Origin: a virus
Virus genome (UHGV): UHGV-0204626
Length of the DNA: 39,893 nt
Direction: 5' to 3' (one strand)
Each line of letters opens with the position of its first letter. The first letter of the stretch is position 1. A model generated the notes under the pieces. It ran no database searches and was not told the origin of the DNA. It was given only the letters and a program-made list of their open reading frames with translations. The position numbers and the translations under genes are program-made. Below are positions 1-12,762 of this stretch, piece after piece.

Positions 1-9
1 ATATTATTT

Positions 10-1188
10 ATGGCTATAAGCGACACAAAACTGCGTACTATTTATGGTAAACCATATTCGGGCCCACAAGAAGTGGCTGATGCCGATGGCCTCAGCGTAC
101 GAATTTCACCGAAGGGGGTCATCCAGTTCCAGTACCGCTATCGCTGGCATGGCAAGCCTAATCGACTTGGGCTTGGTCGATACCCATCCCTGTCTTTGAA
201 GGACGCCAGACAGATCACTGCTGACTTGCGAAAGCTCTATTTCTCAGGAACGGATCCACGCACCTATTTTGAAGAGAAGGTGGAGAACTCCATGACGGTC
301 GCCCAGTGTCTCGACTACTGGTTCGACAACTACGTCTCTACAACTCTCAGAGAAAAGACCCAGGCACTTTACCGATCAACGGTTATGAAGCGCATGCATG
401 ACGCCTTTCCTAATCGTCCGGCATCTTCTATCACGGTTAAGCAATGGGTTGACCTGCTTACCGAAGAAGAAAGAGATAATCCACGCCGAGCAAGGCAGGT
501 GCTAAGTCAACTAAGATCAGCAATAAGTTGGTGCATGCGGCGTCAGTTGATAGATAGTTGCGCAATTATGAGCATCCAGCCAAGGGACTTCGGCTCACGC
601 GCTGAGGTAGGGGATCGGGTACTGTCGTATCACGAACTGGCTAAGATTTGGCTTGCTATTGAAAGAAGCCGTGCGTCTACGTCAAATAAGCTACTTCATC
701 AGATGCTTATGCTGTGGGGGGCGAGGCTCTCAGAGCTTAGGCTGGCAAAAAAGACAGAATTTGACCTGCTGGAAAACGTATGGACCGTACCGAAAGAGCA
801 TAGCAAGATGGGTAATGTTATCCGCCGTCCAATCTTCGAACAAATTAAGCCTTTCCTCGAAAAGGCCATGACAACGTACAATGATGTTCTTTTCCCTGGA
901 GAAGACATAAACAAACCGATCAGCATCGCTGCAGCCAACCGATTCGTAAATAGAATAAGGGGAGGGATGGATCTGGGTTACTGGCGAACACATGATTTCA
1001 GAAGAACGCTTGTTACACGTCTGTCCGAGATGAATGTCGAGCCTCATGTTACTGAGCGAATGCTCGGTCATGAACTTGGCGGGATAATGTCCGTGTACAA
1101 TAAACACGACTGGATAGAGGCTCAGCGCAAAGCGTATGAGCTTCACGCTGATAAATTGTTCTGGCACATCAGGAGCATTTCTGATTAA
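10..1188 (+). CDS. int: Tyrosine integrase (P4-like, with N-terminal arm-type DNA-binding domain)
   Basis: 392-aa ORF; N-terminus has the arm-binding domain pattern (GLSVRISPKG...FQYRYRWHGK...LGLGRYPSLSLKDAR) and the C-terminus has catalytic-domain motifs (HDFRRT...MLGHE...Y). It is the first gene in the window, as expected for a prophage or phage end. Confidence 0.9.
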   Translation: MAISDTKLRTIYGKPYSGPQEVADADGLSVRISPKGVIQFQYRYRWHGKPNRLGLGRYPSLSLKDARQITADLRKLYFSGTDPRTYFEEKVENSMTVAQCLDYWFDNYVSTTLREKTQALYRSTVMKRMHDAFPNRPASSITVKQWVDLLTEEERDNPRRARQVLSQLRSAISWCMRRQLIDSCAIMSIQPRDFGSRAEVGDRVLSYHELAKIWLAIERSRASTSNKLLHQMLMLWGARLSELRLAKKTEFDLLENVWTVPKEHSKMGNVIRRPIFEQIKPFLEKAMTTYNDVLFPGEDINKPISIAAANRFVNRIRGGMDLGYWRTHDFRRTLVTRLSEMNVEPHVTERMLGHELGGIMSVYNKHDWIEAQRKAYELHADKLFWHIRSISD

Positions 1189-1360
1189 CGCCACCGTTAA
1201 GAATCCACCCTTCAACAGCTTCACGAAGGTATGATTTGGGGTGGGTTCTGACTGGCTTCGGAAATCCGTGCCGTTTGGTATAGTTCCAGATTGTCTGACG
1301 TGATGAAACACCGAGCTTATTCATCACTTCTTTCTCAGGAATCAGGCTGGTATCGGTCAT
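1169..1360 (-). CDS. xis: Excisionase / AlpA-like helix-turn-helix DNA-binding protein
   Basis: 63-aa ORF convergent with int; the ...RHGFPKPVRTHPKSYLREAVEGWI pattern resembles AlpA/Xis-family HTH proteins. The true start may be the internal Met (MNKLG...). A hairpin plus T-run follows at about 1372-1395 on the minus strand. Confidence 0.55.
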   Translation of the reverse strand: MTDTSLIPEKEVMNKLGVSSRQTIWNYTKRHGFPKPVRTHPKSYLREAVEGWILNGGVNQKCS

Positions 1361-1460
1361 CTTAATTCTCCAGGCAAAAATAAACCGCCATATAGCGGCT
1401 CTATCAGATATGTACAGGCCTCATCGAGTGTGAGGCGGTGTGATTTCTTTATTTCCACTC

Positions 1461-1676
1461 TTAATGTTTGTCAGTGAATGGTTTCTCCATCTCCATTAAT
1501 GCCTTATTCATCTCATTTCGTAACTCTATAGCCATCCTGACGGCTTCAACTTGTGCAGGATGTCGGTTAATTGCTGGAGAATATCGTCGGGAGCGAAGGA
1601 TTGAGAAAACAAAGATAATGCAAGCAACTATCTGAATTGCATTGCATATTATTGATACAATGTGGATTGCAGCCAT
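1461..1676 (-). CDS. Hypothetical small membrane protein
   Basis: 71-aa ORF with a hydrophobic N-terminal segment (AAIHIVSIICNAIQIVACIIFVFSIL) and a charged C-terminus; weak ribosome-binding site. The call is uncertain. Confidence 0.3.
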   Translation of the reverse strand: MAAIHIVSIICNAIQIVACIIFVFSILRSRRYSPAINRHPAQVEAVRMAIELRNEMNKALMEMEKPFTDKH

Positions 1677-1702
1677 CTACTACCCCAAATAAAAAACCGC
1701 CA

Positions 1703-1870
1703 TCAGGCGTCTTGGTGTTCTTTCAGTTCTTCAATTCGAATATTGGTTACGTCTGCATGTGCTATCTGCGCCCATATCATCCAGTGGTTATAGCAGTCGT
1801 TGATGTCCTCTGCTTCGATAACCCTGTCGAATGGCTCTCCATTCCATTCACCTGTGACTCGGAAGTGCAT
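1703..1870 (-). CDS. Hypothetical small protein (55 aa)
   Basis: ORF below the 60-aa cutoff of the supplied track, found by manual translation (MHFRVTGEWNGEPFDRVIEAEDINDCYNHWMIWAQIAHADVTNIRIEELKEHQDA). It is followed on the minus strand by a hairpin and T-run (about 1683-1702). Confidence 0.35.
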   Translation of the reverse strand: MHFRVTGEWNGEPFDRVIEAEDINDCYNHWMIWAQIAHADVTNIRIEELKEHQDA

Positions 1871-1970
1871 TTATCATCTCCATAAAACAAAACCCGCCGT
1901 AGCGAGTTCAGATAAAAGAAATCCCCGCGAGTGCGAGGATTGTTATTCACCTTTAACGGCAAGTTGCAGG

Positions 1971-2681
1971 TTAGCCACGGTTAACCTCCTGCGGCGGTTC
2001 TGGTAGCGGCATCCAGTGTGACGGTTTCCACGACGCACCAGGAATTATCCAACCATCATTAGCGTCAGGATGCCCCGGTATGTAAGTCGCCCATTTCATT
2101 CGCCAGTCACCTTTCCTGTCAAACTCCCTGGCAACAAGAACGGCTGTTTTGCTATCCGGCATTCGCTCACTACAGCTTATCCAACCATCCGGAGTTACCG
2201 GATAGTTGCCAGCCAGTCTACGCAAAACAGCCTTAACAGCCTCAATACGCTCATCATCGCAACTTTCTGCAGTATCTATGCGGTCGAGCATGATGATGGC
2301 GTTATCAATATCAGGATTGCCGGTCCACTCATTACCGCGATTGGATTCGGCAGCCTGGTTGCGCATAATCTCAGGCGTAAGCTCTTTGTAAGCATAAGCA
2401 AGAGGCTCTGATGCATTATCCGGCACAACCGACGCAGGCGCGGCAGCATAAACAGGAATAACGTCCGGTTGCTCTTTATTGCTTTCATCCGTTAAAGCCC
2501 AGAATAATTTCCCGGCCGGATGTTTGAAAATATAAGCAACTGGTTCTGCTTCCAGCGATGCCAGAGCAATTCGTGCCAGTTCTTCCGCTTCTTCTGCTGG
2601 CAGTACAACGTTGCTACCAGGTCCGTATGTTTCGCGCCACTGCTTGATTGTCAGTAGTCGATCTTTGGTAATAGTGGTCAT
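1971..2681 (-). CDS. Early-region phage protein, DUF551-like C-terminus
   Basis: 236-aa ORF; the C-terminal stretch DGWISCSERMPD...VLVA...W...GWIIPG...SHWMPLPEPP is the pattern I associate with DUF551 prophage proteins. Confidence 0.65.
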   Translation of the reverse strand: MTTITKDRLLTIKQWRETYGPGSNVVLPAEEAEELARIALASLEAEPVAYIFKHPAGKLFWALTDESNKEQPDVIPVYAAAPASVVPDNASEPLAYAYKELTPEIMRNQAAESNRGNEWTGNPDIDNAIIMLDRIDTAESCDDERIEAVKAVLRRLAGNYPVTPDGWISCSERMPDSKTAVLVAREFDRKGDWRMKWATYIPGHPDANDGWIIPGASWKPSHWMPLPEPPQEVNRG

Positions 2682-2683
2682 AG

Positions 2684-3427
2684 CTATTTCACCTTAATCT
2701 CAACATTTCGCAGCTTTAGCTCTACTGGCAGGTCTGACTTTCCTGTTAATGCTAATGCGAGATTTTCTGGAGTAATGAGAGCAGTTATTGTTTTCCCCCT
2801 CGCCAGACGAATAATCATTCGTATCTCGCAATCGTCACATGCTCCCGGTCGAACAATTGATATTTGTCCATTCATCTCACTCTCCTTTGATGCGAAGCCT
2901 GTTGCAATGCTGCTTATGATGCTGTCAGTGCATGGTGTAGAAAGCTGGGCATCTCCAGCAATTTTCATGACCTCAACATCTGCATATCGAATACCGAGGT
3001 GTATCAGACCGGCTATGCCTGACTTAAGCCGAGCATTTTCCATAAACAGATCCTTTGCCCGCTGTTTTTCTGCCTCAAGCTCAACGCGCAGCTTCCCTAC
3101 CGTTAGCGCAATATCCTCGTTCTCCTGGTCACGGCGTTTGATGTATTGCTGTTTTCTTTCCAGCTCATCCAGCAGCGCCAAGACGGTAGCCGGATTGGCT
3201 GCGGCGATGAATTCAGCATTGGCCTGCTGTTCCATTTGGAAATCTTCATAGAAACGGCTTTCTGGATGCGCTCCTTCAATTCTGCAAATGGGAATATATC
3301 CAGCAACTTCACGATGAATTAGCGCATCATCACCATCAAATCGGCCCTCTCCATATTCGAGCGACCACACACCACACGTTGCTTTTTCTGCCTTAGCACG
3401 CAGTGCCTGATAATCAATCTTGCTCAT
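2684..3427 (-). CDS. Ead/Ea22-like early protein
   Basis: 247-aa ORF; N-terminus MSKIDYQALRAKAEKAT...ANAEFIAAANPATVLALLDELE followed by a coiled-coil stretch, typical of Ead/Ea22-family lambdoid early proteins. Confidence 0.65.
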   Translation of the reverse strand: MSKIDYQALRAKAEKATCGVWSLEYGEGRFDGDDALIHREVAGYIPICRIEGAHPESRFYEDFQMEQQANAEFIAAANPATVLALLDELERKQQYIKRRDQENEDIALTVGKLRVELEAEKQRAKDLFMENARLKSGIAGLIHLGIRYADVEVMKIAGDAQLSTPCTDSIISSIATGFASKESEMNGQISIVRPGACDDCEIRMIIRLARGKTITALITPENLALALTGKSDLPVELKLRNVEIKVK

Positions 3428-3428
3428 G

Positions 3429-3749
3429 TCACATCACCCTGAATCCGTTGCATTTACGTAAAAAATCGCAGATATAGCCCTTCATTTTTTCATGCCAATC
3501 TCGATCATTCCCATTGCACCAACCATCAGGTGGAGTCCAGTTTTCTATCAGAGCAGCCATTTTCTTTGCTTTCGCCGGAGTAGCTGTTGCGGTATCGCAG
3601 TAATGACGAGTGTCAACCAACGCATCCATACCATCGATATCAAGTACGCAAAACCATGTGTGATTCGGAATTCCTACAGGTGGTATTTGTTGCCCACGTC
3701 GACGTTTATCAATAAGATATACACTCACTGCTTGCCTCCTTTGCGCCAC
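3429..3749 (-). CDS. Hypothetical early protein
   Basis: 106-aa ORF in the leftward early operon, tightly packed with its neighbours. Start is uncertain because it overlaps the upstream ORF. Confidence 0.45.
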
Positions 3750-3925
3750 ATCGCATTCAGATATTTGTTTTGATTTACTGACGGAAAAGAATTTCTCTTA
3801 AGCAATTCCTCTCTCGATGGCATTGGCTTTACGCGTTGGCGAATAATCATTTCTGCCGGAAGAATGCCGGGATTGTATGCAAGTCCTCTCATTGTAAATT
3901 CCTCAGTCATTACTGATAGCGCCAT
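3725..3925 (-). CDS. Hypothetical early protein
   Basis: 66-aa ORF in the operon, overlapping neighbours at both ends; context only. Confidence 0.3.
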
Positions 3926-4199
3926 AGCGTGAGCGGTAATTACGCAGGCGCGGGTCGATATATTCAGGGAAGTGGGTATATGTGGATTTGCGGAATGGTC
4001 GGATTGATGTTTCGTTTATTCGGTCTTTTTCCTGTTTTTCTGCGAGTTGTATATCGCGTCGGTACTTCCGTTCTTCTTTTGTTTCTGGTGGCAGAGCAAG
4101 AAACGCGTCGAGATTATTCTTGATATTTTCCAGCACCTCAGATATGGAATTGCCGGAACAGCGGCGCGGGTCGTCCGCACCATATAGAGGCGCTGGCAT
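3903..4199 (-). CDS. Hypothetical early protein
   Basis: 98-aa ORF in the leftward operon, charged and lysine/arginine-rich. Confidence 0.45.
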
Positions 4200-4215
4200 G
4201 GTTTTCTCCTGTTGA

Positions 4216-4764
4216 TTATTTAGCTAACTTTTTCCAGATCGCTGAAACGTATTTGGCTTGGTGGATGGCATCATCAAGCGCGTTGTGGCGAGTTCCTTTG
4301 AATGGCATATCTCGCTTAGGATCGAATCCTATTACCTTCCCAAGTTCGACGATTGTTCTTACGTCGCGGTCATTCCACCACTGCCACGGAACTGGCTGCC
4401 CTGTCAGCGAATAACTGTTGCGGAGAATAACGCAGTCAAATGATGCTCCATTCCCCCAAACCTGAACGAGTTTGTGGTTGGCGTTCTTTATGATGAATTC
4501 AGATAACCATGAAAGAGCCGTTGAAAGCTCCTGAGTGTTGCTGGTTAGCGATTTTCTGGCTTCTTCACTCTGTTCCAGCCACCATAAAATCGTTGAAGCG
4601 TCAGGACGCGCCCGATATCGCATTGATGACTCAAGCGAGATATTTACCGAGAACTCTTCTCCTGTTTCTCCGGTATTCGGGTCAAAGAATACCGCCCCAA
4701 TAGAAATAACTGGCGCGTATGGCCCGTTGCCCATTGTTTCAAGGTCAACCATCAAGTGATTCAT
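4216..4764 (-). CDS. 3'-5' exonuclease (DnaQ-like / DEDD family)
   Basis: 182-aa ORF; N-terminal MVDLETMG motif (Exo I-like acidic DxE) and C-terminal H...D motif (TRHNALDDAIHQA) typical of DEDDh exonucleases found in prophage recombination modules. Confidence 0.75.
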   Translation of the reverse strand: MNHLMVDLETMGNGPYAPVISIGAVFFDPNTGETGEEFSVNISLESSMRYRARPDASTILWWLEQSEEARKSLTSNTQELSTALSWLSEFIIKNANHKLVQVWGNGASFDCVILRNSYSLTGQPVPWQWWNDRDVRTIVELGKVIGFDPKRDMPFKGTRHNALDDAIHQAKYVSAIWKKLAK

Positions 4765-4772
4765 GTAAGTCC

Positions 4773-5279
4773 TTAAATTGCGTGAATAGCGTGACGAGGG
4801 AAGGGGAGAGTTACTGGTGCAAAGGGTATATCGTCGTCAAAATCCATCGGAGGTTCGTTGTGTTGTGCTGGTGATGATTGCTGCTGTGGCTTCTGCGATT
4901 GCCTGCTGGCTGCTTGTTGTTTGCTGTCGCCAATTCCGCCAAGCATTTGCATCACGCCATTAATTCCGACATGAACCTCGGTTGTGTAACGGTCTTGCCC
5001 TGACTGGTCTTTCCACTTTCTGGTTCTCAGCATTCCCTCGAAATAAATCTGATCACCTTTTTTCACATACTGCCCCACGACCTCAGCCAGTTTCCCGGAT
5101 ACAGCAACACGATGCCATTCAGTCAATTCCTTTTGCTCGCCAGTATTTTTATCTCGCCATTGTTCTGACGTGGCTATTGTCAGGTTAGCGAACGCTGTTC
5201 CTGATGGTGAGTATCGAACTTCCGGGTCTTGTCCTACCCGACCAAGGATAATCACCTTATTTACGCCTCTGCTTGCCAT
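4773..5279 (-). CDS. ssb: Single-stranded DNA-binding protein
   Basis: 168-aa ORF; OB-fold SSB signature ([18 protein letters not shown]...TEWHRV...) with a Gln/Pro-rich linker and acidic C-terminal tail ending DDDIPF. Confidence 0.92.
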
Positions 5280-5987
5280 TTATGCCGCCTGTTTTAGCTC
5301 GTTAACTCTGATGTTCATTACCTGAACGCATTTAGCCTGCGCCTCCTCGTTGCCAGCCATTAATTGCCAGTCACGATGATAACGCTCGATGAGTTTTTTC
5401 TTGTCAGTTTCTGTTGACGCATAATCGCTGAAGTCTTTCAGGATTTGTTCGCAGTCAACCGATGGAGATTTCTGGTTGGTATTTTCTGGTGATGGTTTGT
5501 TATCTGATGCTGGGATTGCCCATCCCGGCAGCGATGGAGGGAGCCAGTAAAATCCTGTTCCATCCTTGAGTTTTGCCCTGTGCCATCCCTGCTTTTTATC
5601 GAGAGATGTTTGTGCAAAACCTTCCTCAAGGTTATACAGATACCGACCGATTCCCCACTGAACGGCAGCGCGCTTCATTGCACCGGAACGACCACCTTTG
5701 ACGGCTTCTACCTGCGTGTTTTCAGCAGCATCCCATTTGGTTACCCATTCGGAATCAATCTTTATTGATATGCCGCATTCAACGCCGCCGTTGTTGGGAA
5801 TATCGCGGTATTCATTGCGCCATCCTGCTTTGCCGCAAACATCGTCCAGGCGTTTCATGATTGCCCGGTTCGTGACATAAGCCAGCACCATAGCCCACAC
5901 TTTGCCATCGCGTGTTTTACCGCTTTGCTGTATTCGCCATTCGATATCTTCAGGGCTGAATGGCTCATCGAATTTATTCAAATCCAT
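5280..5987 (-). CDS. ssDNA-annealing recombinase with an Erf-like C-terminal domain
   Basis: 235-aa ORF directly upstream of ssb in the recombination module. The C-terminal ~55 aa (CEQILKDFSDYASTETDKKKLIERYHRDWQLMAGNEEAQAKCVQVMNIRVNELKQAA) match my recollection of the P22 Erf C-terminus; the N-terminal domain looks like a different annealing-protein family. Confidence 0.75.
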   Translation of the reverse strand: MDLNKFDEPFSPEDIEWRIQQSGKTRDGKVWAMVLAYVTNRAIMKRLDDVCGKAGWRNEYRDIPNNGGVECGISIKIDSEWVTKWDAAENTQVEAVKGGRSGAMKRAAVQWGIGRYLYNLEEGFAQTSLDKKQGWHRAKLKDGTGFYWLPPSLPGWAIPASDNKPSPENTNQKSPSVDCEQILKDFSDYASTETDKKKLIERYHRDWQLMAGNEEAQAKCVQVMNIRVNELKQAA

Positions 5988-5995
5988 AATTCACC

Positions 5996-6166
5996 TCAGA
6001 ATGGACATGGCCCAAGGAAATAACGCTGATTTAATACTTCAGTCTTTGCCGCATTCAAAAATACGCGAACACCTTCACGATCTCCCTTCTGGCGATACAT
6101 TAACGCCTGCTGCGTGTACATGCGCCTCTGTAACTTGCTCTCCTTCACTGTGGTTGCAAGTGACAT
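5996..6166 (-). CDS. Hypothetical small protein (56 aa)
   Basis: Manually found ORF with a strong ribosome-binding site (GAAGGAGATATTC-ATG), between kil and the recombinase. An alternative overlapping ORF in another frame (6075-6245, MSFTDNWSDEEF...) is coupled to the kil stop; only one is likely real. Confidence 0.3.
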   Translation of the reverse strand: MSLATTVKESKLQRRMYTQQALMYRQKGDREGVRVFLNAAKTEVLNQRYFLGPCPF

Positions 6167-6241
6167 GAATATCTCCTTCGTTACCGATTAATTCTTTCAT
6201 CTGACGAATGAATTCTTCGTCTGACCAGTTATCTGTAAAAC

Positions 6242-6394
6242 TCATTTCCTGCGATACCATGGAAGGTTGATAGCTGATTTCATCTCTTTATTTGCTTCAA
6301 GCCACATTTTGGAATCACCAATAAATCTGGCTATTACTGCTTTGTTTTGTGCCGCACGAAGCATCTGGTGATTGATGGCTATTTCATTGCGCAT
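6242..6394 (-). CDS. kil: Kil-like host-killing / cell-division inhibitor protein
   Basis: Manually found 50-aa ORF; the segment AAQNKAVIARFIGDSKMWLEA resembles the lambda Kil core (…FTIATFIGDEKMFREA…), and it sits immediately downstream of cIII as in lambda. Confidence 0.5.
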   Translation of the reverse strand: MRNEIAINHQMLRAAQNKAVIARFIGDSKMWLEANKEMKSAINLPWYRRK

Positions 6395-6510
6395 AATAAG
6401 ACCTCAACTCTTTTCCATCCGTCACGTAATTTACGGGTGATTCGTTCAAGTAAAGATTCATTTAGTTGGAAGGCACCCATGCGAGCGCCTCCCGCGATTG
6501 CGTAAATCAT
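6379..6510 (-). CDS. cIII: cIII-like protease inhibitor (FtsH inhibitor)
   Basis: Manually found 43-aa ORF (MIYAIAGGARMGAFQLNESLLERITRKLRDGWKRVEVLLCAMK) carrying the conserved cIII core ESLLERITRKLRDGWKR; ribosome-binding site AAGGAA upstream. Confidence 0.75.
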   Translation of the reverse strand: MIYAIAGGARMGAFQLNESLLERITRKLRDGWKRVEVLLCAMK

Positions 6511-6534
6511 GGGTGGTTCCTTATGTTGGTTTTA

Positions 6535-7500
6535 TTAGTAGGTTATTTTTGTTGCGAATACTTCGCCTTTTACGATGGCTGTTATGATATTTTTAGCAAC
6601 ATCTTCTGATGCGACAACCTTGATAAGGTCAGCAAGTATTTTGTTATTTACTTCTTTCCGGTGAGCTTTATCCTTTGCTCTACGCTCTTCTTCGTCCTTG
6701 ATTCTTTTTTCTTCTGCTATTCTGGCTTGCTCTTTTGCTTCAGCCTCGCGCAGGATTCGTTCTGCCTCCTCCTGTGCTTTACGGCGTTCTGCTTCAATTG
6801 CCGCATGCTTTTCTCTTTCAGCTCGTTCTGCCTCTTTTGCTTCGCGCTGTGCTCGTTGCTCGGCTTCAATGCGTTCACGCTCTGCACGTTCCGCTGCGGC
6901 CTTAGCTTCTGCTTCTCGCCTTGCTGCTGCTTCAATTTCGGCTTTTGCCTTTGCTTCGGCTTCAGCTCTGGCTTTCTCTTCAGCTTCTCTTTTTAAGCGT
7001 TCTTCATGCTCTCGCTTTTCCTGCTCAGCTTTGAGTCTTGCCTCTTCTCTTTGGCGGTCAAATTCTCGATCCATCAAAATCGCTATTTCATGGTCAGACT
7101 CAATTTGCTTTGCGAGAGCTTCGGCTGCTGCCTTAGCTTCTTCTTCGGCTTTAATCCGCGCCTGTTCCTCTTCATAATCAGTAAGAGGCTGGCGTGCCTT
7201 GGCTTTCAGTTCATCAAGGCGATCGCGCACTGTCTTGCGGTTGTTATCAATTAGCTTTGGAATTTCCTTCAGTTCAGCAACAAGGTCTTTGCCAAGACCA
7301 TCGAGATATGTTTTCGTCTGCGCAACTTTATACGCCAGAGAAGCGATCTCCTTTCTGCCCTTTGCCGTTGTGATATCAGGCACAAAGGACATAACTTCAC
7401 GTTCAACCTTTTGAAGGATTTCTTCAATCTGGTCGGCAGACTGAAATACAGTCATTGCATTTGCTTTTTCAATAACAACTAAATCTGTTACTTCACTCAT
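6535..7500 (-). CDS. ER/K-rich coiled-coil protein of unknown function
   Basis: Long ORF (6535-7554 in the track); the likely start is the Met at 7500, preceded by GGAGGA. A structured N-terminal ~130 aa is followed by ~150 aa of near-pure E/A/K/R repeats (EAKAKAEIEAAARREAEAKAAAERAERERIEAEQRAQREAKEAERAEREK...) and a short C-terminal domain. Confidence 0.7.
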   Translation of the reverse strand: MSEVTDLVVIEKANAMTVFQSADQIEEILQKVEREVMSFVPDITTAKGRKEIASLAYKVAQTKTYLDGLGKDLVAELKEIPKLIDNNRKTVRDRLDELKAKARQPLTDYEEEQARIKAEEEAKAAAEALAKQIESDHEIAILMDREFDRQREEARLKAEQEKREHEERLKREAEEKARAEAEAKAKAEIEAAARREAEAKAAAERAERERIEAEQRAQREAKEAERAEREKHAAIEAERRKAQEEAERILREAEAKEQARIAEEKRIKDEEERRAKDKAHRKEVNNKILADLIKVVASEDVAKNIITAIVKGEVFATKITY

Positions 7501-7643
7501 ATATCCTCCGTCAAAAAAATTGCCCTCACACTGGAGGGCAAAGAAGATTTCCAATAATCAGAACAAGTCGGCTCCTGTTTAGTTACGAGCGACATTGCTC
7601 CGTGTATTCACTCGTTGGAATGAATACACAGTGCTTACTCGTA

Positions 7644-8114
7644 CTAATAAAATACCCAATTTTCTGTTTCTTGGTTGTGCCCAAAGTTATATTCAATATC
7701 TGGTGTTGATGTATCAATATTCTTCATCCCATCAACAAGAGTTGATACAACAGCCAAATCTTGTTTGATTCTCATCAAATGGTATTTCTTCCGGCGCAAT
7801 AAACTTTCAATGGCAAGTTTCTTCGTCGGGAATGCAAAAGATCTTTCTGCATTTTTTGCTACTTTCTTAATTGCATATCTATTTCTCCTTTGTTTCCATT
7901 CCTGTAACCACTGATTTGGTGCTGGTTTAAAATTAACAATCCAATGCGCAGGAACCAACCATGCATAATGCTCTGTCTGATGAAAAGCTATATATTGAAG
8001 TGCGAATATTTTGATTCCATCTTCTTCAACTGTCGCTTGGAATCTCCAGAAAACAGGCATTCCATCATGTTCAGTTTCTGATTCAGGAAAAGGTACGCTC
8101 CATGATTTTGTCAT
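7644..8114 (-). CDS. Hypothetical protein (156 aa), accessory gene in the ral/sieB position
   Basis: ORF immediately downstream of the N-like gene in the leftward operon, with ribosome-binding site GAGGTGA. The local DNA is visibly AT-rich compared with its neighbours. I do not recognise the protein. Confidence 0.7.
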   Translation of the reverse strand: MTKSWSVPFPESETEHDGMPVFWRFQATVEEDGIKIFALQYIAFHQTEHYAWLVPAHWIVNFKPAPNQWLQEWKQRRNRYAIKKVAKNAERSFAFPTKKLAIESLLRRKKYHLMRIKQDLAVVSTLVDGMKNIDTSTPDIEYNFGHNQETENWVFY

Positions 8115-8122
8115 ATCTCACC

Positions 8123-8422
8123 TCAAATAAGTGGTTTGCTGCCTAATTTCATTTTCTGGCGACCAACACAAGTCACACCCATTTCACTGCGTGGCTTGCG
8201 GTAGTAAATACGGTTCTGTTTACGCTCGACTTCTTCTGCCTTCTTGCAGCGAAGGCTTCCGAGTGATGCTGCTTTATCTGCTCTGACGCAACCAGAGAGC
8301 TTTAGCGCAATTTTTCGCGCCAGTCGCTGTTCTTGCATCGCCTGTTCACGTTGAGCCTGTCTGCGTGCTCTGCGGCGATTTCTGGTGTTATCGTCAGCCA
8401 GATATGTAATGACTACTGTCAT
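8123..8422 (-). CDS. N: N-like transcription antitermination protein
   Basis: Arginine-rich motif near the N-terminus (DDNTRNRRRARRQAQREQ) like the lambda N RNA-binding motif. Start placed at the internal Met (MTVVITYLADD) preceded by GGAGGT; it is the first gene downstream of nutL. Confidence 0.7.
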   Translation of the reverse strand: MTVVITYLADDNTRNRRRARRQAQREQAMQEQRLARKIALKLSGCVRADKAASLGSLRCKKAEEVERKQNRIYYRKPRSEMGVTCVGRQKMKLGSKPLI

Positions 8423-8462
8423 GTTGACCTCCGGGTAGGTGCACATCCTTGTGTGTCGATGA

Positions 8463-8582
8463 TTATTTGTTTTTGCGTTGCCACATCCAGTCATCTACTT
8501 CAGACCAGATAGTGAAACCGAAGCCGATGGCGAATGTGGTAACTAAACCACCGAGAATTGGGTTGGTCATGATGTCTAACAT
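8463..8582 (-). CDS. Hypothetical small hydrophobic peptide (39 aa)
   Basis: Manually found ORF (MLDIMTNPILGGLVTTFAIGFGFTIWSEVDDWMWQRKNK) with ribosome-binding site GAGGA 7 nt upstream; predicted single transmembrane segment; lies between nutL and N. Confidence 0.3.
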   Translation of the reverse strand: MLDIMTNPILGGLVTTFAIGFGFTIWSEVDDWMWQRKNK

Positions 8583-8752
8583 TTTCTGTTCCTCAGATGA
8601 TTAGCTTTGGTGGTGTGGTAGGTGGGAGACCCATTTCGACCCGCTTCGTCCGACTTCAATTCGGCAATAGTCCCGCAGGCCTCGCCGCTTTACGTGCGAC
8701 ATATTCCCGTCCATGAACCCTTCACCACACCCCAAAGCCAACTACTCTTTGG

Positions 8753-8796
8753 TTCCCGCATTTCGGCGGGACAATCCCATCAATGTTAAAGAGCCT
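8753..8796 (-). promoter_or_regulatory. nutL (boxA plus boxB hairpin)
   Basis: On the minus strand: boxA-like GCTCTTTAACA, then 13 nt, then the hairpin CCCGC-cgaaat-GCGGG. The same boxA and an identical boxB occur at nutR on the plus strand. Confidence 0.6.
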
Positions 8797-8834
8797 GCCA
8801 ATCTGTTCCGTTTGGCTTCCAGCGTCCTGCTGAT

Positions 8835-8905
8835 GGCTTAAATTTAAGATCTCTTTAATTAATGGTCAAGGGTATTTTTGAAGAAAACTTAAATTTTCTT
8901 TCGTA
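8835..8905 (-). promoter_or_regulatory. Probable OL/pL operator-promoter region
   Basis: Contains near-palindromic ATTTAAGA...CTTTAAT sites resembling those between c2 and cro; it lies upstream of nutL and N. Exact -35/-10 not resolved. Confidence 0.4.
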
Positions 8906-8930
8906 ACTTAAGTTTGGCTTTGATTTTTAA

Positions 8931-8958
8931 AGGAAATAAAAAAAGGGGCGAATGCCCC
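8931..8958 (-). terminator. Rho-independent terminator after c2
   Basis: GGGGC-attc-GCCCC hairpin followed by a T-run on the minus strand, immediately after the c2 stop codon. Confidence 0.6.
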
Positions 8959-8959
8959 C

Positions 8960-9610
8960 TTATGGAAGGTTTGCTAGTTTTGCATCGACAACTACGCCGA
9001 TGATTTTGCAGTTTCCGTTGATCTCGATCATCGGATATTGTGGGTTAAGTGGTTTTAGAAACTTCCTGCCTGCATCAATAACTAACTTCTTGAAAGTTGC
9101 CTCGTTTTCTCCTTCGAGCTTTGCAACTACCAGTTTCCCGTTACGCGGCTCTACTTCAGGATCGACGAGTATTATCATTCCTTCAGGGATACTGAGACCG
9201 GCCGGAGCCGTCATTGAGTCTCCCTTCACGTCCAACCAAAACGAATCTTCTGAACAGTCTACGGTTGTATCGTACCAGTTATCTATTGCACGCTTATGAT
9301 ATGGTTCTACAGCTTCCATCCAGCATCCTGCGCTCACCCAGCTAATCAGAGGGTATGACCCTCTTGGATCATGCCTACTGTGATAGGCAATGTTTGAAAG
9401 ACTTTCCTCTCCTTTCATCAGATAGTCAGGGGAACACTTCAACGCATTAGCCAGGGCGAGAAGATTCTCTCCATTTGGCTCTGTCTCAGAGCGTTCCCAC
9501 TGAGATATGGCAACATTAGACACGCCGACCATCTTTCCAAGTGCGGACTGCCTGATCTTGAGTTCTTTTCTCCGAGCGCGAATGCGCTCTCCCATCAATT
9601 GAGTTTTCAT
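8960..9610 (-). CDS. c2: c2 (CI-type) repressor, LexA/S24-family
   Basis: 216-aa ORF that matches my memory of the P22 c2 repressor almost residue for residue: N-terminal HTH (IRQSALGKMVGVSNVAISQWER) and C-terminal self-cleavage domain (...GDSMTAPAGLSIPEGMIILVDPE...KLANLP). Confidence 0.95.
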   Translation of the reverse strand: MKTQLMGERIRARRKELKIRQSALGKMVGVSNVAISQWERSETEPNGENLLALANALKCSPDYLMKGEESLSNIAYHSRHDPRGSYPLISWVSAGCWMEAVEPYHKRAIDNWYDTTVDCSEDSFWLDVKGDSMTAPAGLSIPEGMIILVDPEVEPRNGKLVVAKLEGENEATFKKLVIDAGRKFLKPLNPQYPMIEINGNCKIIGVVVDAKLANLP

Positions 9611-9690
9611 AGTTAAGACATCTTAAATAAACTTGACTTAAGATTCCTTTAGTGGATAATTTAAGTGTTCTTTAATTTCGGAGCGAGTCT
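9611..9690. promoter_or_regulatory. OR operator region with divergent pRM/pR promoters
   Basis: Palindrome TTAAGAcaTCTTAA (9613-9626) and near-palindrome ATTTAAGtgttCTTTAAT (about 9657-9677); candidate pR -35 TTGACT (9633-9638) and -10 GATAAT (9655-9660); sits between divergent c2 and cro. Confidence 0.65.
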
Positions 9691-9876
9691 ATGTACAAGA
9701 AAGATGTTATCGACCACTTCGGAACCCAGCGTGCTGTAGCTAAAGCGTTAGGCATTAGCGACGCAGCAGTCTCTCAGTGGAAGGAAGTCATCCCAGAGAA
9801 AGACGCCTATCGACTGGAAGTCGTTACAGCTGGCGCCCTGAAGTATCAAGAAAGCGCTTACCGCAAAGCGGCATAA
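9691..9876 (+). CDS. cro: Cro repressor
   Basis: 61-aa ORF (MYKKDVIDHFGTQRAVAKALGISDAAVSQWKEVIPEKDAYRLEVVTAGALKYQESAYRKAA), near-identical to my memory of P22 Cro; divergent from c2. Confidence 0.95.
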   Translation: MYKKDVIDHFGTQRAVAKALGISDAAVSQWKEVIPEKDAYRLEVVTAGALKYQESAYRKAA

Positions 9877-9883
9877 GCAAATT

Positions 9884-9926
9884 GCTCTTTAACAGTCATG
9901 GTCCTCATTCCCGCCGAAATGCGGGA
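9884..9926 (+). promoter_or_regulatory. nutR (boxA plus boxB hairpin)
   Basis: boxA GCTCTTTAACA (9884-9894) then boxB hairpin CCCGC-cgaaat-GCGGG (9910-9925), directly after the cro stop. Confidence 0.65.
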
Positions 9927-9984
9927 ATACAACGCGCATAAGTTGATGCGCATAACTTCTTATTTGTTAAGGAAATACTTACAT

Positions 9985-10263
9985 ATGGAACTTACAAGTA
10001 CTCGCAAGAAAGCGAATGCAATTACAAGCAACATCCTGAATCGAATTGCTGTACGTGGTCAGCGAAAGGTTGCCGACGCGTTAGGGATTAATGAATCGCA
10101 AATTTCGCGATGGAAAGACAGCTTCATCCCAAAAATGGGAATGCTTCTGGCTGTTCTTGAATGGGGTGTTGAAGACGAGGAGTTGGCTGAACTGGCTAAG
10201 AAAGTAGCCAGAATGCTGACAAAAGAAAAAGCCCCGAAGAACGGCGAATTCTTCGAGGCCTGA
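9985..10263 (+). CDS. cII: CII-type transcriptional activator (P22 c1 equivalent)
   Basis: Internal Met of the 9898-10263 ORF, preceded by AAGGAAA; the protein carries the lambda CII motifs ...SQISRWKRDWIPK / MLLAVLEWGV... in the form ...ESQISRWKDSFIPKMGMLLAVLEWGVEDEE. Confidence 0.85.
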   Translation: MELTSTRKKANAITSNILNRIAVRGQRKVADALGINESQISRWKDSFIPKMGMLLAVLEWGVEDEELAELAKKVARMLTKEKAPKNGEFFEA

Positions 10264-10297
10264 TGTAGAAAGACTGGATCAATCCACAGGAGGAATT

Positions 10298-10453
10298 ATG
10301 ACAAAACGTCGTAAGAAATACCAGGAAAAAGAAGAGATTCGACACCCTGATTCACCTGAGGGATTAGTGGTAGCCGCAGCAAATAACAGGGCGTTCGCAG
10401 AGCGCCTTGTTGGTGTTTACAGACTAGCCAAAGCAGGAGTGAAACATGGGCGT
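10298..10453 (+). CDS. Hypothetical small basic protein (51 aa)
   Basis: Manually found ORF with a strong ribosome-binding site (ACAGGAGGAATT-ATG) between cII and O (MTKRRKKYQEKEEIRHPDSPEGLVVAAANNRAFAERLVGVYRLAKAGVKHGRR). Confidence 0.4.
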
Positions 10454-10508
10454 CGTTAAGTTAGCTGATTACAGGCATAACCCTGTACAACATCAGGAGG
10501 CATCCAGT

Positions 10509-11336
10509 ATGGGGTATGTCTCTATACACCGCCAGTTTATGGACAGCAGGCTCTATAAGGACTCTCAGGCAGTACATCTTTGGCTTCACTTAATCCTCAA
10601 GGCTAATCACGAATCTACTGTCGTCAATACGGATATCGGTCCGATAACTGTTGATCGCGGTCAGATGATAACTGGACGCCCGTCGCTGGTCAGAGAAACA
10701 TTCATCCCCGACAACAAAGTTCGGAGCTTATTACGGACTTTTGAGTCGAAAGGGATGCTTAATATTTGCTCGATGGGGAAGAAATTTAGCCTGTTTACAA
10801 TCGTTAAATATGACGATTTTCAGGCAAAAAATTGTCCAACGGTTGTCCAACGGTTGTCCAACGCAAACACCAGTAATGGCGCGGCTCTCAGCGGAGATTG
10901 TCCAACGGTTGTCCAACTGTTGTCCATAAACAATAATATAAATAATATCTCTAATACTGACGTATTAGAGAGTGCCACAGCAGACAAAAAGTCTGACAAG
11001 AAAAAACCTTCCGTTAGCTGTCAGGATGTTGTCGATGCTTACCACGAAATCCTTCCTGAAGCGCCAAGAATCCGCGCACTGAATGACAAGCGTAAAAACC
11101 AGATCCGAACGTTCTGGCGCAAAGCCGGAGTGATAACCCGCCAGCTTGACGGGCATGGGTTCACGATGCAGGACTGGAGAAATTATTTGAGCTACGTAGG
11201 CGAAAATTGCCGATGGATGTTCGAAGAACGCCCAAACCATCAACGCGGAACCGTCTGGCACAAAAAGGGATTTGATTTCCTGCTTAACGACAATACCTAC
11301 CTGAAAGTTCGTGAGGGTGAACACGATGACCGATAA
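10509..11336 (+). CDS. O: Replication initiator O (P22 gene 18 equivalent)
   Basis: ORF containing the origin iterons and AT-rich region inside its coding sequence, as in lambda O. Start placed at the Met preceded by CAGGAGG; an alternative upstream start exists at 10446. Confidence 0.8.
   Translation: MGYVSIHRQFMDSRLYKDSQAVHLWLHLILKANHESTVVNTDIGPITVDRGQMITGRPSLVRETFIPDNKVRSLLRTFESKGMLNICSMGKKFSLFTIVKYDDFQAKNCPTVVQRLSNANTSNGAALSGDCPTVVQLLSINNNINNISNTDVLESATADKKSDKKKPSVSCQDVVDAYHEILPEAPRIRALNDKRKNQIRTFWRKAGVITRQLDGHGFTMQDWRNYLSYVGENCRWMFEERPNHQRGTVWHKKGFDFLLNDNTYLKVREGEHDDR
10832..10965. repeat. Origin of replication: six 11-bp iterons plus AT-rich region
   Basis: TTGTCCAACGG repeated three times in tandem (10832-10864) and three more near-copies (about 10898-10930), followed by AT-rich DNA (AAACAATAATATAAATAATATCTCTAATA). 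Confidence 0.8.
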
Positions 11337-12762
11337 TTTTTATGCGCCGCCCCATAGCATCGAGGCAGAGCAGGCGGTTATTGGTGGATTGCTTCTGGAT
11401 GATGACAGCAGTGAGCGCGTCCGGAAAGTTCTGGCGATGCTGAAGCCTGATTCATTTTACAGCCGACCACACAAAATCATTTTCGATGAAATAACCAGAA
11501 TGCACCGGGAGCAAAAGCCAGTAGATGGGCTGACGCTTTTCGATGAACTGGAGCGCAAATCATTAACGGCGTCTGTTGGCGGTTTTGCTTATATCGCTGA
11601 GATCGCAAAGAACACGCCAAGCGCCGCAAACATCGTTGCCTATGCAATGCAGGTTCGTGAAACCGCAATGGAACGCTACGCCATCAACCGCATGACTGAA
11701 GCGACGGAATTGCTCTATTCCCGCAACGGAATGACTGCAACGCAGAAGTACGAAGCTATTCAGTCGATTTTCACGCAACTGACAGACCATGCAAAAACCG
11801 GATCGCGTCGCGGCCTTCGTTCATTTGGTGAGGTCATGGAAGACTGGGTTAGCGACCTTGAGAAGCGATTTGACCCATCAGGCGAACAACGGGGAATGAG
11901 CACAGGGATCCCATCGCTGGACAGGATGCTGTCACCGAAAGGTCTGGTGAAAGGCTCTCTGTTTGTCATTGGCGCTCGCCCTAAGATGGGGAAAACGACG
12001 CTATACAGCCAGATGGCAATCAACTGCGCAGTGCATGAGAAAAAGCCCGCTCTGATGTTCAGCCTTGAAATGCCCGGTGACCAGATACTGGAAAAACTGG
12101 TAGGGCAGAAGTCAGGTGTGAACCCGAATATTTTTTACCTTCCGGCGACAAATGACGCTGATGACGGCTATCAGGGTGATTACGATGGTGACTTCAACAG
12201 GGCGATCGAGACAGCCAATCGCTTGAGTGAAATCGACCTGCTTTACATCGACGACACGCCGGGATTATCTCTGGCTCAAATCGTCAGCGAAAGCCGTCGA
12301 ATCAAACGAGAAAAAGGATGCGTTGGCATGATTCTGGTCGATTACCTGACGCTAATGACCGCTGAAAAGGCCGATCGCAACGACCTTGCATACGGCATGA
12401 TCACCAAAGGACTGAAGAACCTTGCCAAAGAGCTTGATTGCGTTGTTGTGCTTCTGACACAGCTTAACCGCGCATTGGAAAGCCGAACCAATAAACGCCC
12501 ATTACCAAGTGACTCGCGCGATACAGGGCAGATTGAACAGGATTGCGATTACTGGGTGGGGATCCATCGGGAAGGTGCTTTTGATGACAGTGTTCCACCT
12601 GGTGAAACCGAACTAATCCTTCGTCTCAATCGTCATGGCAATACCGGCACGGTGTATTGCATTCAGGCAAATGGCGCTATTTATGACACAGACCAACAGT
12701 CTGCTGAAATGCGCCGACGTGAACGCGAGGAACCGCAGTCCAAGAAGAAAGGGGGATTCTGA
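11326..12762 (+). CDS. DnaB-family replicative helicase (P22 gene 12 equivalent)
   Basis: About 479-aa ORF; DnaB N-terminal domain motif (PHSIEAEQAVIGGLLLD) and Walker A (GARPKMGKTT) in a RecA-like domain. Start placed at MTDNFYAPP, overlapping the O stop. Confidence 0.9.
   Translation: MTDNFYAPPHSIEAEQAVIGGLLLDDDSSERVRKVLAMLKPDSFYSRPHKIIFDEITRMHREQKPVDGLTLFDELERKSLTASVGGFAYIAEIAKNTPSAANIVAYAMQVRETAMERYAINRMTEATELLYSRNGMTATQKYEAIQSIFTQLTDHAKTGSRRGLRSFGEVMEDWVSDLEKRFDPSGEQRGMSTGIPSLDRMLSPKGLVKGSLFVIGARPKMGKTTLYSQMAINCAVHEKKPALMFSLEMPGDQILEKLVGQKSGVNPNIFYLPATNDADDGYQGDYDGDFNRAIETANRLSEIDLLYIDDTPGLSLAQIVSESRRIKREKGCVGMILVDYLTLMTAEKADRNDLAYGMITKGLKNLAKELDCVVVLLTQLNRALESRTNKRPLPSDSRDTGQIEQDCDYWVGIHREGAFDDSVPPGETELILRLNRHGNTGTVYCIQANGAIYDTDQQSAEMRRREREEPQSKKKGGF

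Follow-up and report, generated by a model that had tools for sequence, protein, structure and literature searches.

A Rad52/Sak-type annealing domain joined to a P22 Erf-type C-terminal domain in the recombination module of a lambdoid phage genome

Erf domain swaps have been published for Sf6, ES18, epsilon34, and phage L (PMC2629481, PMC8022706): the epsilon34 genome paper (PMC2629481) discusses gene 36 in these terms, and the phage L paper (PMC8022706) repeats the point. Zheng, Casjens et al. 2025 catalogued the Rec modules of lambdoid phages and classed the annealases “by their strand-annealing domain” (PMC12315714); their list includes a class that combines an anti-RecBCD protein, an SSB, a nuclease, and a SAP, as well as DnaQ-like nucleases, e.g., that of epsilon34. 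At the level of families, Lopes et al. 2010 (PMC2896510) assign Sak, Erf, and Redbeta to a single superfamily of Rad52-like proteins.

Three known systems serve for comparison. Erf of the Salmonella phage P22 (ERF family, PF04404) has a two-domain plan, a ring-forming N-domain followed by a small C-domain, and its gene has abc1 downstream, with no ssb or nuclease. Sak of the Lactococcus phage ul36 is a Rad52 homologue (Ploquin et al. 2008), and an SSB gene directly follows sak. Lambda Redbeta is an architectural analogue, with an N-terminal annealing core, a linker, and a small three-helix C-domain of ~60-70 residues, and its partner nuclease is the Exo-type 5'-3' enzyme.

Here, we describe an annealase gene from the UHGV virus genome UHGV-0204626; “the window” refers to the whole stretch of 39,893 nucleotides that was analysed. 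The gene lies within the early-left operon of a lambdoid E. coli phage or prophage, in the same genomic slot as P22 erf, and it encodes a mosaic protein, a Rad52/Sak body with a P22 Erf-type C-terminal domain (Table 1). The closest records for window positions 1-12000 are IME10, Huey, Sf6, N7, mEp234, mEpX2, and mEp235, each of which matches in mosaic patches. The reading frame opens with ATG and its stop codon TAA runs straight into the ATG of ssb (TAAATG), and its limits (5280-5987) agree exactly with those of the original prediction, which had been made from the sequence before any database search.

Table 1. Coordinates of the annealase gene, its domains, and its neighbours in the window
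Feature	Coordinates	Strand	Extent	Evidence or remark
SSAP (single-strand annealing protein) gene	5280..5987	(-)	235 aa plus stop	PHROG 1097, full length, E 3.5e-130
Rad52/Sak-type annealing domain	5508..5987	(-)	residues 1-160	Pfam PF04098, ul36 Sak identity, family alignment
Variable low-complexity linker, Pro/Ser/Asn/Gln-rich	5454..5507	(-)	residues 161-178	variable alignment columns, pLDDT
C-terminal domain common to P22 Erf	5283..5453	(-)	residues 179-235	BLASTP, DNA island, AF2, dN/dS
SSB	4773..5279	(-)		PF00436, E 1.6e-36; start codon abuts annealase stop
DEDDh (DnaQ-like, Rv2179c-like) 3'-5' exonuclease	4216..4764	(-)		PF16473, E 5.8e-73
Abc2 anti-RecBCD protein	3903..4199	(-)		PF11043, E 1.2e-43
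Two overlapping small ORFs, different frames	5996..6166 and 6075..6260	(-)		upstream of annealase

By sequence similarity, the annealing domain belongs to the Rad52/Sak family and not to the ERF family. Residues 4-136 match Pfam Rad52_Rad22 (PF04098) at 91.9 bits, above the family cutoff of 20.3 (E 5e-26), over model positions 7-153 of 153. Residues 6-159 align with residues 11-164 of the experimentally characterised ul36 Sak at 59% identity over 155 residues (E 8e-67), and the two proteins share the blocks KGGxSGxMKRAAVQWGxGRYLY and WxxPxLPxWAxP. In the family alignment, the domain closes with a conserved FYWxPPxLPxWAxP block. The window protein has no match to Pfam ERF (PF04404) at E <= 0.01, a family that the P22, HK97, GZ7, EhrS_49, and Morganella proteins do match. 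Residues 1-156 have no similarity to P22 Erf by BLASTP or by family profile alignment, consistent with the different Pfam family of the P22 Erf N-domain. Among the other annealases proposed for comparison, RecT (Pfam) and lambda Bet (hhalign with the tail profile, prob 0.2%) were unmatched.

The N-terminal part is therefore unlike Erf, as had been predicted. The additional proposal of a different annealing-protein fold stands as to the family, whereas “different fold” is too strong: the family is different but perhaps not the fold, given the common Rad52-like superfamily described by Lopes et al. 2010 (PMC2896510). A full-length AF2 model from the single sequence was poor (pLDDT 44), with an order of strands and helices compatible with the Rad52 beta-beta-beta-alpha core, which leaves sequence as the basis for assigning a Rad52 fold to the N-domain. 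HMMER and hhalign comparisons of the annealase with PDB or human RAD52 (the latter with an approximate RAD52 query) were not significant, and no significant match to PDB sequences was obtained with the protein itself or with either of the two profiles, tail and family.

One segment at the end of this domain drew a separate comparison. Residues 129-164 (window 5496-5603, minus strand; GWHRAKLKDGTGFYWLPPSLPGWAIP) have a WW-domain-like signature and a weak phmmer match to the Prp40 WW domain (E 0.1). A WW domain was rejected, as the family profile loses the Prp40 match and there is no Pfam match at E <= 10. The residues W148, P151, L153-P154, W156, and P159 are invariant through the annealase family, ul36 Sak included, and the segment is a conserved element outside the Pfam Rad52 core.

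The C-terminal domain is where the protein resembles Erf. BLASTP against P22 Erf (AF217253) aligned residues 157-235 alone, to Erf 134-205 (62% identity, E 1e-29), and the final 56 residues have 73% identity at the protein level and 78% at the DNA level; the ~55-residue likeness to the P22 Erf C-terminus, as originally predicted, is real. The family profile likewise aligned to P22 Erf through the tail alone (prob 99.3%, E 9e-21), which leaves no full-length alignment to Erf by either method. In a tblastn search of 50,697 phage records, P22-type phages matched residues 157-235 only (E 4e-21). Judged by sequence similarity, the match of the tail to P22 Erf is far beyond chance.

AF2, run on the tail with a 42-sequence alignment, predicts a confident three-helix bundle (pLDDT 86.4; helices at 179-192, 196-209, and 214-234) with a disordered linker ahead of it. 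Compared with P22, dN is 0.13 and dS is 1.49 (dN/dS ~0.09), and the tail is under purifying selection. L183, F186, Y203, W207, G212, I226-R227, and E230-L231 are kept in homologues at 30-50% identity, a pattern that spans Erwinia, Klebsiella, Morganella, Serratia, Xenorhabdus, and other homologues. Pfam has no family for the tail. A tail-only homologue search, which returned short fragments only, served for reading the flanking Pfam domains; across the homologue searches, the N-terminal neighbour was always ERF or Rad52_Rad22, and all named sources were Enterobacterales. With phmmer against 1.84 billion representatives, the tail gave 16 matches, mostly fragments or assembly chimeras. Sak-type N-domains of Lactococcus, Vibrio, and Pseudoalteromonas bear other C-termini; the C-terminal 88 residues of ul36 Sak show no detectable relation to the tail of the Erf type, and hhalign of the tail against them gave no support for one. 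In a predicted 106-aa protein from public databases, the linker and Erf-type tail follow immediately on a lambda-N-type antiterminator N-terminal peptide (PF11438); this protein probably stems from a deletion in a prophage that reached from N into the gene for the annealase.

Between the two domains, the linker columns of the family alignment vary in both length and sequence, and pLDDT is <50 where the C-domain model begins. The linker is a recombination-prone domain boundary, as the DNA comparisons demonstrate. The P22 homology takes the form of a 171-bp island (5280-5450, 78.4%) bordered on either side by unrelated sequence, and it begins just past the linker, at 5450. Homology to ST64T covers 5280-6004 (91.6%) and ends at the annealase stop codon, beyond which ST64T has abc1 and the window has ssb and the exonuclease. 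Homology to HK97 covers 5995-6396 (90%) and ends exactly at the annealase start, where HK97 has a true Erf. The DNA breakpoints coincide with domain and gene boundaries.

The two domains also have incongruent histories. P22 and HK97 Erf are 92% identical in the N-domain and 40% in the tail, while the window protein and ES18 are 96% identical in the N-domain and 80% in the tail. ES18, which has a Sak N-domain with ssb downstream, and P22, which has an Erf N-domain with abc1 downstream, have unrelated N-domains and yet tails that are 93% identical in protein and DNA. Comparison of the window with ST64T gives a dS of 0.25 for the N-domain, against 0.59 for the tail. Together, the incongruent domain histories and the sharp DNA breakpoints show recombination and not uneven divergence, in agreement with the predicted domain swap within the recombination module. 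The tail variant follows the Salmonella-phage and E. coli/Shigella-phage pools; the idea that it tracks the downstream gene (abc1 or ssb) was rejected, and it does not track the N-domain family either. This distribution indicates repeated recombination at the linker, and the P22/HK97 comparison implies that the linker is a breakpoint within the ERF family too.

The hybrid is common. At E <= 1e-5, the full-length protein has 5593 homologues; the best 120 of these are 57-98% identical, mostly over the whole length, come from many enterobacterial genera, and all contain PF04098. Single 90% clusters of the hybrid have 1495 and 3531 members, and NCBI names the homologues “recombinase” or “Rad52/Rad22 family DNA repair protein.” The proteins of the Shigella phage Sf6 (gene 28), HK75, mEp235, mEpX2, and IME10 are 98-99% identical to that of the window over all 235 residues, and the likeness extends to the DNA; their genes also occupy the same slot, downstream of gp42/42.1-like ORFs, kil, and cIII. 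ES18 gp49, epsilon34 gp36, and ST64T Orf-235, all from Salmonella phages, are alike in architecture and length, with a Sak-type N-domain 95-96% identical to that of the window and the Salmonella variant of the tail (80-84% to the window, 86-93% to P22). Because the Erf swaps and the module had already been published, and the gene order of epsilon34 (annealase-ssb-exonuclease-abc2) is identical to that of the window, the finding is correct but not new: the Sak/Erf hybrid is a widespread enterobacterial phage family, published years ago and not unique to the window.

The genes downstream of the annealase complete a recognizable module. Abc2, the exonuclease, SSB, and the annealase are all encoded on the minus strand and abut, making a contiguous anti-RecBCD/nuclease/SSB/SAP module that fits the ES18-type functional class of lambdoid Rec modules (Zheng et al. 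2025, PMC12315714). An SSB and a DEDD exonuclease do lie beside the annealase, as first proposed. The exonuclease has DLET ... HNALDD motifs and is the same gene as epsilon34 gene 34; the partner nuclease in the window is this 3'-5' DEDDh enzyme or RecBCD-Abc2, in contrast to the 5'-3' Exo-type enzyme of lambda. The abc2 DNA is 75-84% identical to abc2 of P22, HK97, and Sf6, and beyond Abc2 on the minus strand are a DUF7739 protein and an Ead/Ea22 protein.

The SSB extends for 15 aa beyond an acidic DFDDDIPF motif (3' end of ssb, window 4773-4820), such that the tip Phe is not C-terminal. The protein is identical in HK75, mEp235, and mEpX2, and extended SSBs are also found in epsilon34 and g341c, whereas those of Sf6, ES18, and IME10 stop at IPF. 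The last 46 nt of ssb match the end of Sf6 gene 26, which encodes an HNH-type protein, at 100% identity, and this stretch looks like a shared module-boundary block. Downstream of the annealase, Sf6 has ssb and the HNH gene 26, while the window has the extended ssb and the DEDDh exonuclease.

On the other side of the annealase, the two small ORFs are counterparts of HK97 gp42/42.1 and Sf6 genes 29/30; P22 has arf there. The string “SDEEFI” in their N-terminal part is also present in P22 Arf, so they may represent an Arf-like accessory gene. Jointly, the two ORFs match a single 84-aa HK97 protein, HK97p32. At 6535-7554 on the same strand, the window encodes a 339-aa protein whose centre is a long coiled coil rich in Glu, Ala, Lys, and Arg, assigned to PHROG 1376 (unknown function) with no Pfam match. 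It is the equivalent of Sf6 gene 33, and its homologue in Erwinia phage EhrS_49 is annotated “anti-toxin for Gam [phi80].”

Taking the family assignments, breakpoints, incongruence, purifying selection, and helical fold as direct results, we consider it very probable that the protein is a two-domain SSAP of an established, widespread enterobacterial family, a hybrid formed by recombination at the linker, and we propose a docking role for the tail. By homology with ul36 Sak and RAD52, residues 1-160 would form oligomeric rings, bind ssDNA, and anneal complementary strands, and annealing would in turn lead to RecA-independent recombination and to genome circularisation or concatemer formation. 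The flexible linker tethers a 57-residue three-helix bundle homologous to the P22 Erf C-domain. The hybrid originated through linker recombination between lambdoid phages with Erf-type and Sak-type annealases, and recurrent exchange at this position gave the N- and C-domains their different histories.

The C-domain would act outside annealing itself, as a peripheral docking module that brings the ring to a partner, with the lambda Redbeta C-domain as the model. On this analogy, we favour a tail that docks the annealase, with SSB ranked first among its possible partners and Abc2-RecBCD second. The docking role is favoured on the basis of several published systems. In an Erf-like ring solved in 2026, the three-helix C-domain appears as loose density at the apex, and recognition of the ring does not require it (PMC13017515). 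The C-domain of Redbeta first engages lambda Exo and subsequently the SSB tail, and the C-domains of other annealases are believed to bind such partners (PMC11611040). Phage SSBs encoded beside annealases stimulate them via the SSB tails (PMC5928155). The predicted structure of the tail is mildly supportive: Erf, Sak3, and RecT proteins (12-17% identity) are over-represented among its top BFVD neighbours, at non-significant E-values of 0.2 or higher and for an unspecified part of each target; the BFVD matches include A0A6J5LSX4, A0A6J5P4S1, and A0A8S5V349.

Several observations speak against applying the Redbeta model unchanged. Besides the dissimilarity to Bet, a Foldseek search of PDB with the tail returned generic helical bundles as top matches, with no significant E-values, and the Redbeta C-domain (PDB 6M9K) was absent from the top structural matches. 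The 15 residues after DDDIPF in the SSB would mask the free C-terminal Phe used by canonical SSB-tail binders. The tail is also present in phages that have no SSB or Abc2 genes, e.g., EhrS_49 (Table 1 of PMC12315714), so no phage-encoded partner is universal.

The C-domain might instead dock the annealase on Abc2-modified RecBCD and not on SSB, in which case the host nuclease would load the annealase on the ssDNA that it makes, as lambda Exo loads Redbeta. Abc2 is encoded in the window and in the tail-bearing phages P22, ST64T, HK97, Sf6, ES18, and epsilon34; P22, with no nuclease of its own, depends on Abc2-hijacked RecBCD (Murphy 2000, as cited in PMC5928155), and the exonuclease binding of the Redbeta C-domain (PMC11611040) offers a precedent. 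We nevertheless regard RecBCD docking as unlikely, as the EhrS_49 and mEp234 classes, which are listed as having no anti-RecBCD gene (Table 1 of PMC12315714), include phages with the tail, and HK620 has Abc2 with a Sak4 annealase that lacks the tail (PMC5928155).

A further alternative is that the 171-bp segment is kept mainly as a DNA “boundary sequence” for lambdoid module swapping and that its peptide has little function. Alternative modules do flank the island, with the N-domain of Erf or of Sak on its upstream side and abc1 or ssb on the downstream side, such sequences were annotated by Casjens in Sf6, and the 46-nt block at the ssb end is similar. This is highly improbable, however, given the low dN/dS with synonymous sites saturated relative to P22, the confident three-helix model with its invariant W, G, IR, and EL pattern, and the persistence of the domain in different genera, with 30-50% identical proteins long after DNA homology has gone. 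Poteete and colleagues are also said to have found in 1983 that Erf fragments without this domain form rings and bind DNA and are non-functional in vivo, which argues in the same direction.

The least tenable reading, that there was no swap and that Erf and the window protein descend vertically from one ancestor, with an N-domain diverged past recognition and a conserved tail, could appeal to the shared Rad52-like superfamily of Erf and Sak (Lopes et al. 2010, PMC2896510) but is already refuted by the incongruent domain identities, including the 59% match of the N-domain to a tail-less Lactococcus phage Sak, the 92% and 40% of P22/HK97, and the 93% tail DNA identity of ES18/P22 with unrelated N-domains, as well as by the abrupt break in DNA homology at 5450, so we give it practically no weight.

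The gene is often labelled “Erf” or “Erf-like,” and its annotation is corrected here: the catalytic domain is of the Rad52/Sak type. We also raise, tentatively and as a possible extension, that the tail is a portable docking module, kept constant by enterobacterial lambdoid phages and tuned to their gene pool or host while Erf and Sak cores exchange. If so, the ring, which is sensed by defences (AbiK, RAZR, SaPI Stl2), could be replaced without rewiring the contacts with SSB or RecBCD-Abc2, and structurally similar tails on Sak3 and RecT proteins, if borne out, would point to a general plug-in architecture for annealases. What the tail binds is a question that reportedly dates to Poteete in 1983 and is not specific to the window. 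Knowing the tail's binding partner would account for annealases working in some hosts and not in others, could allow the rational design of recombineering chimeras, and could show how phages swap recombinase cores that are targeted by anti-phage defence.
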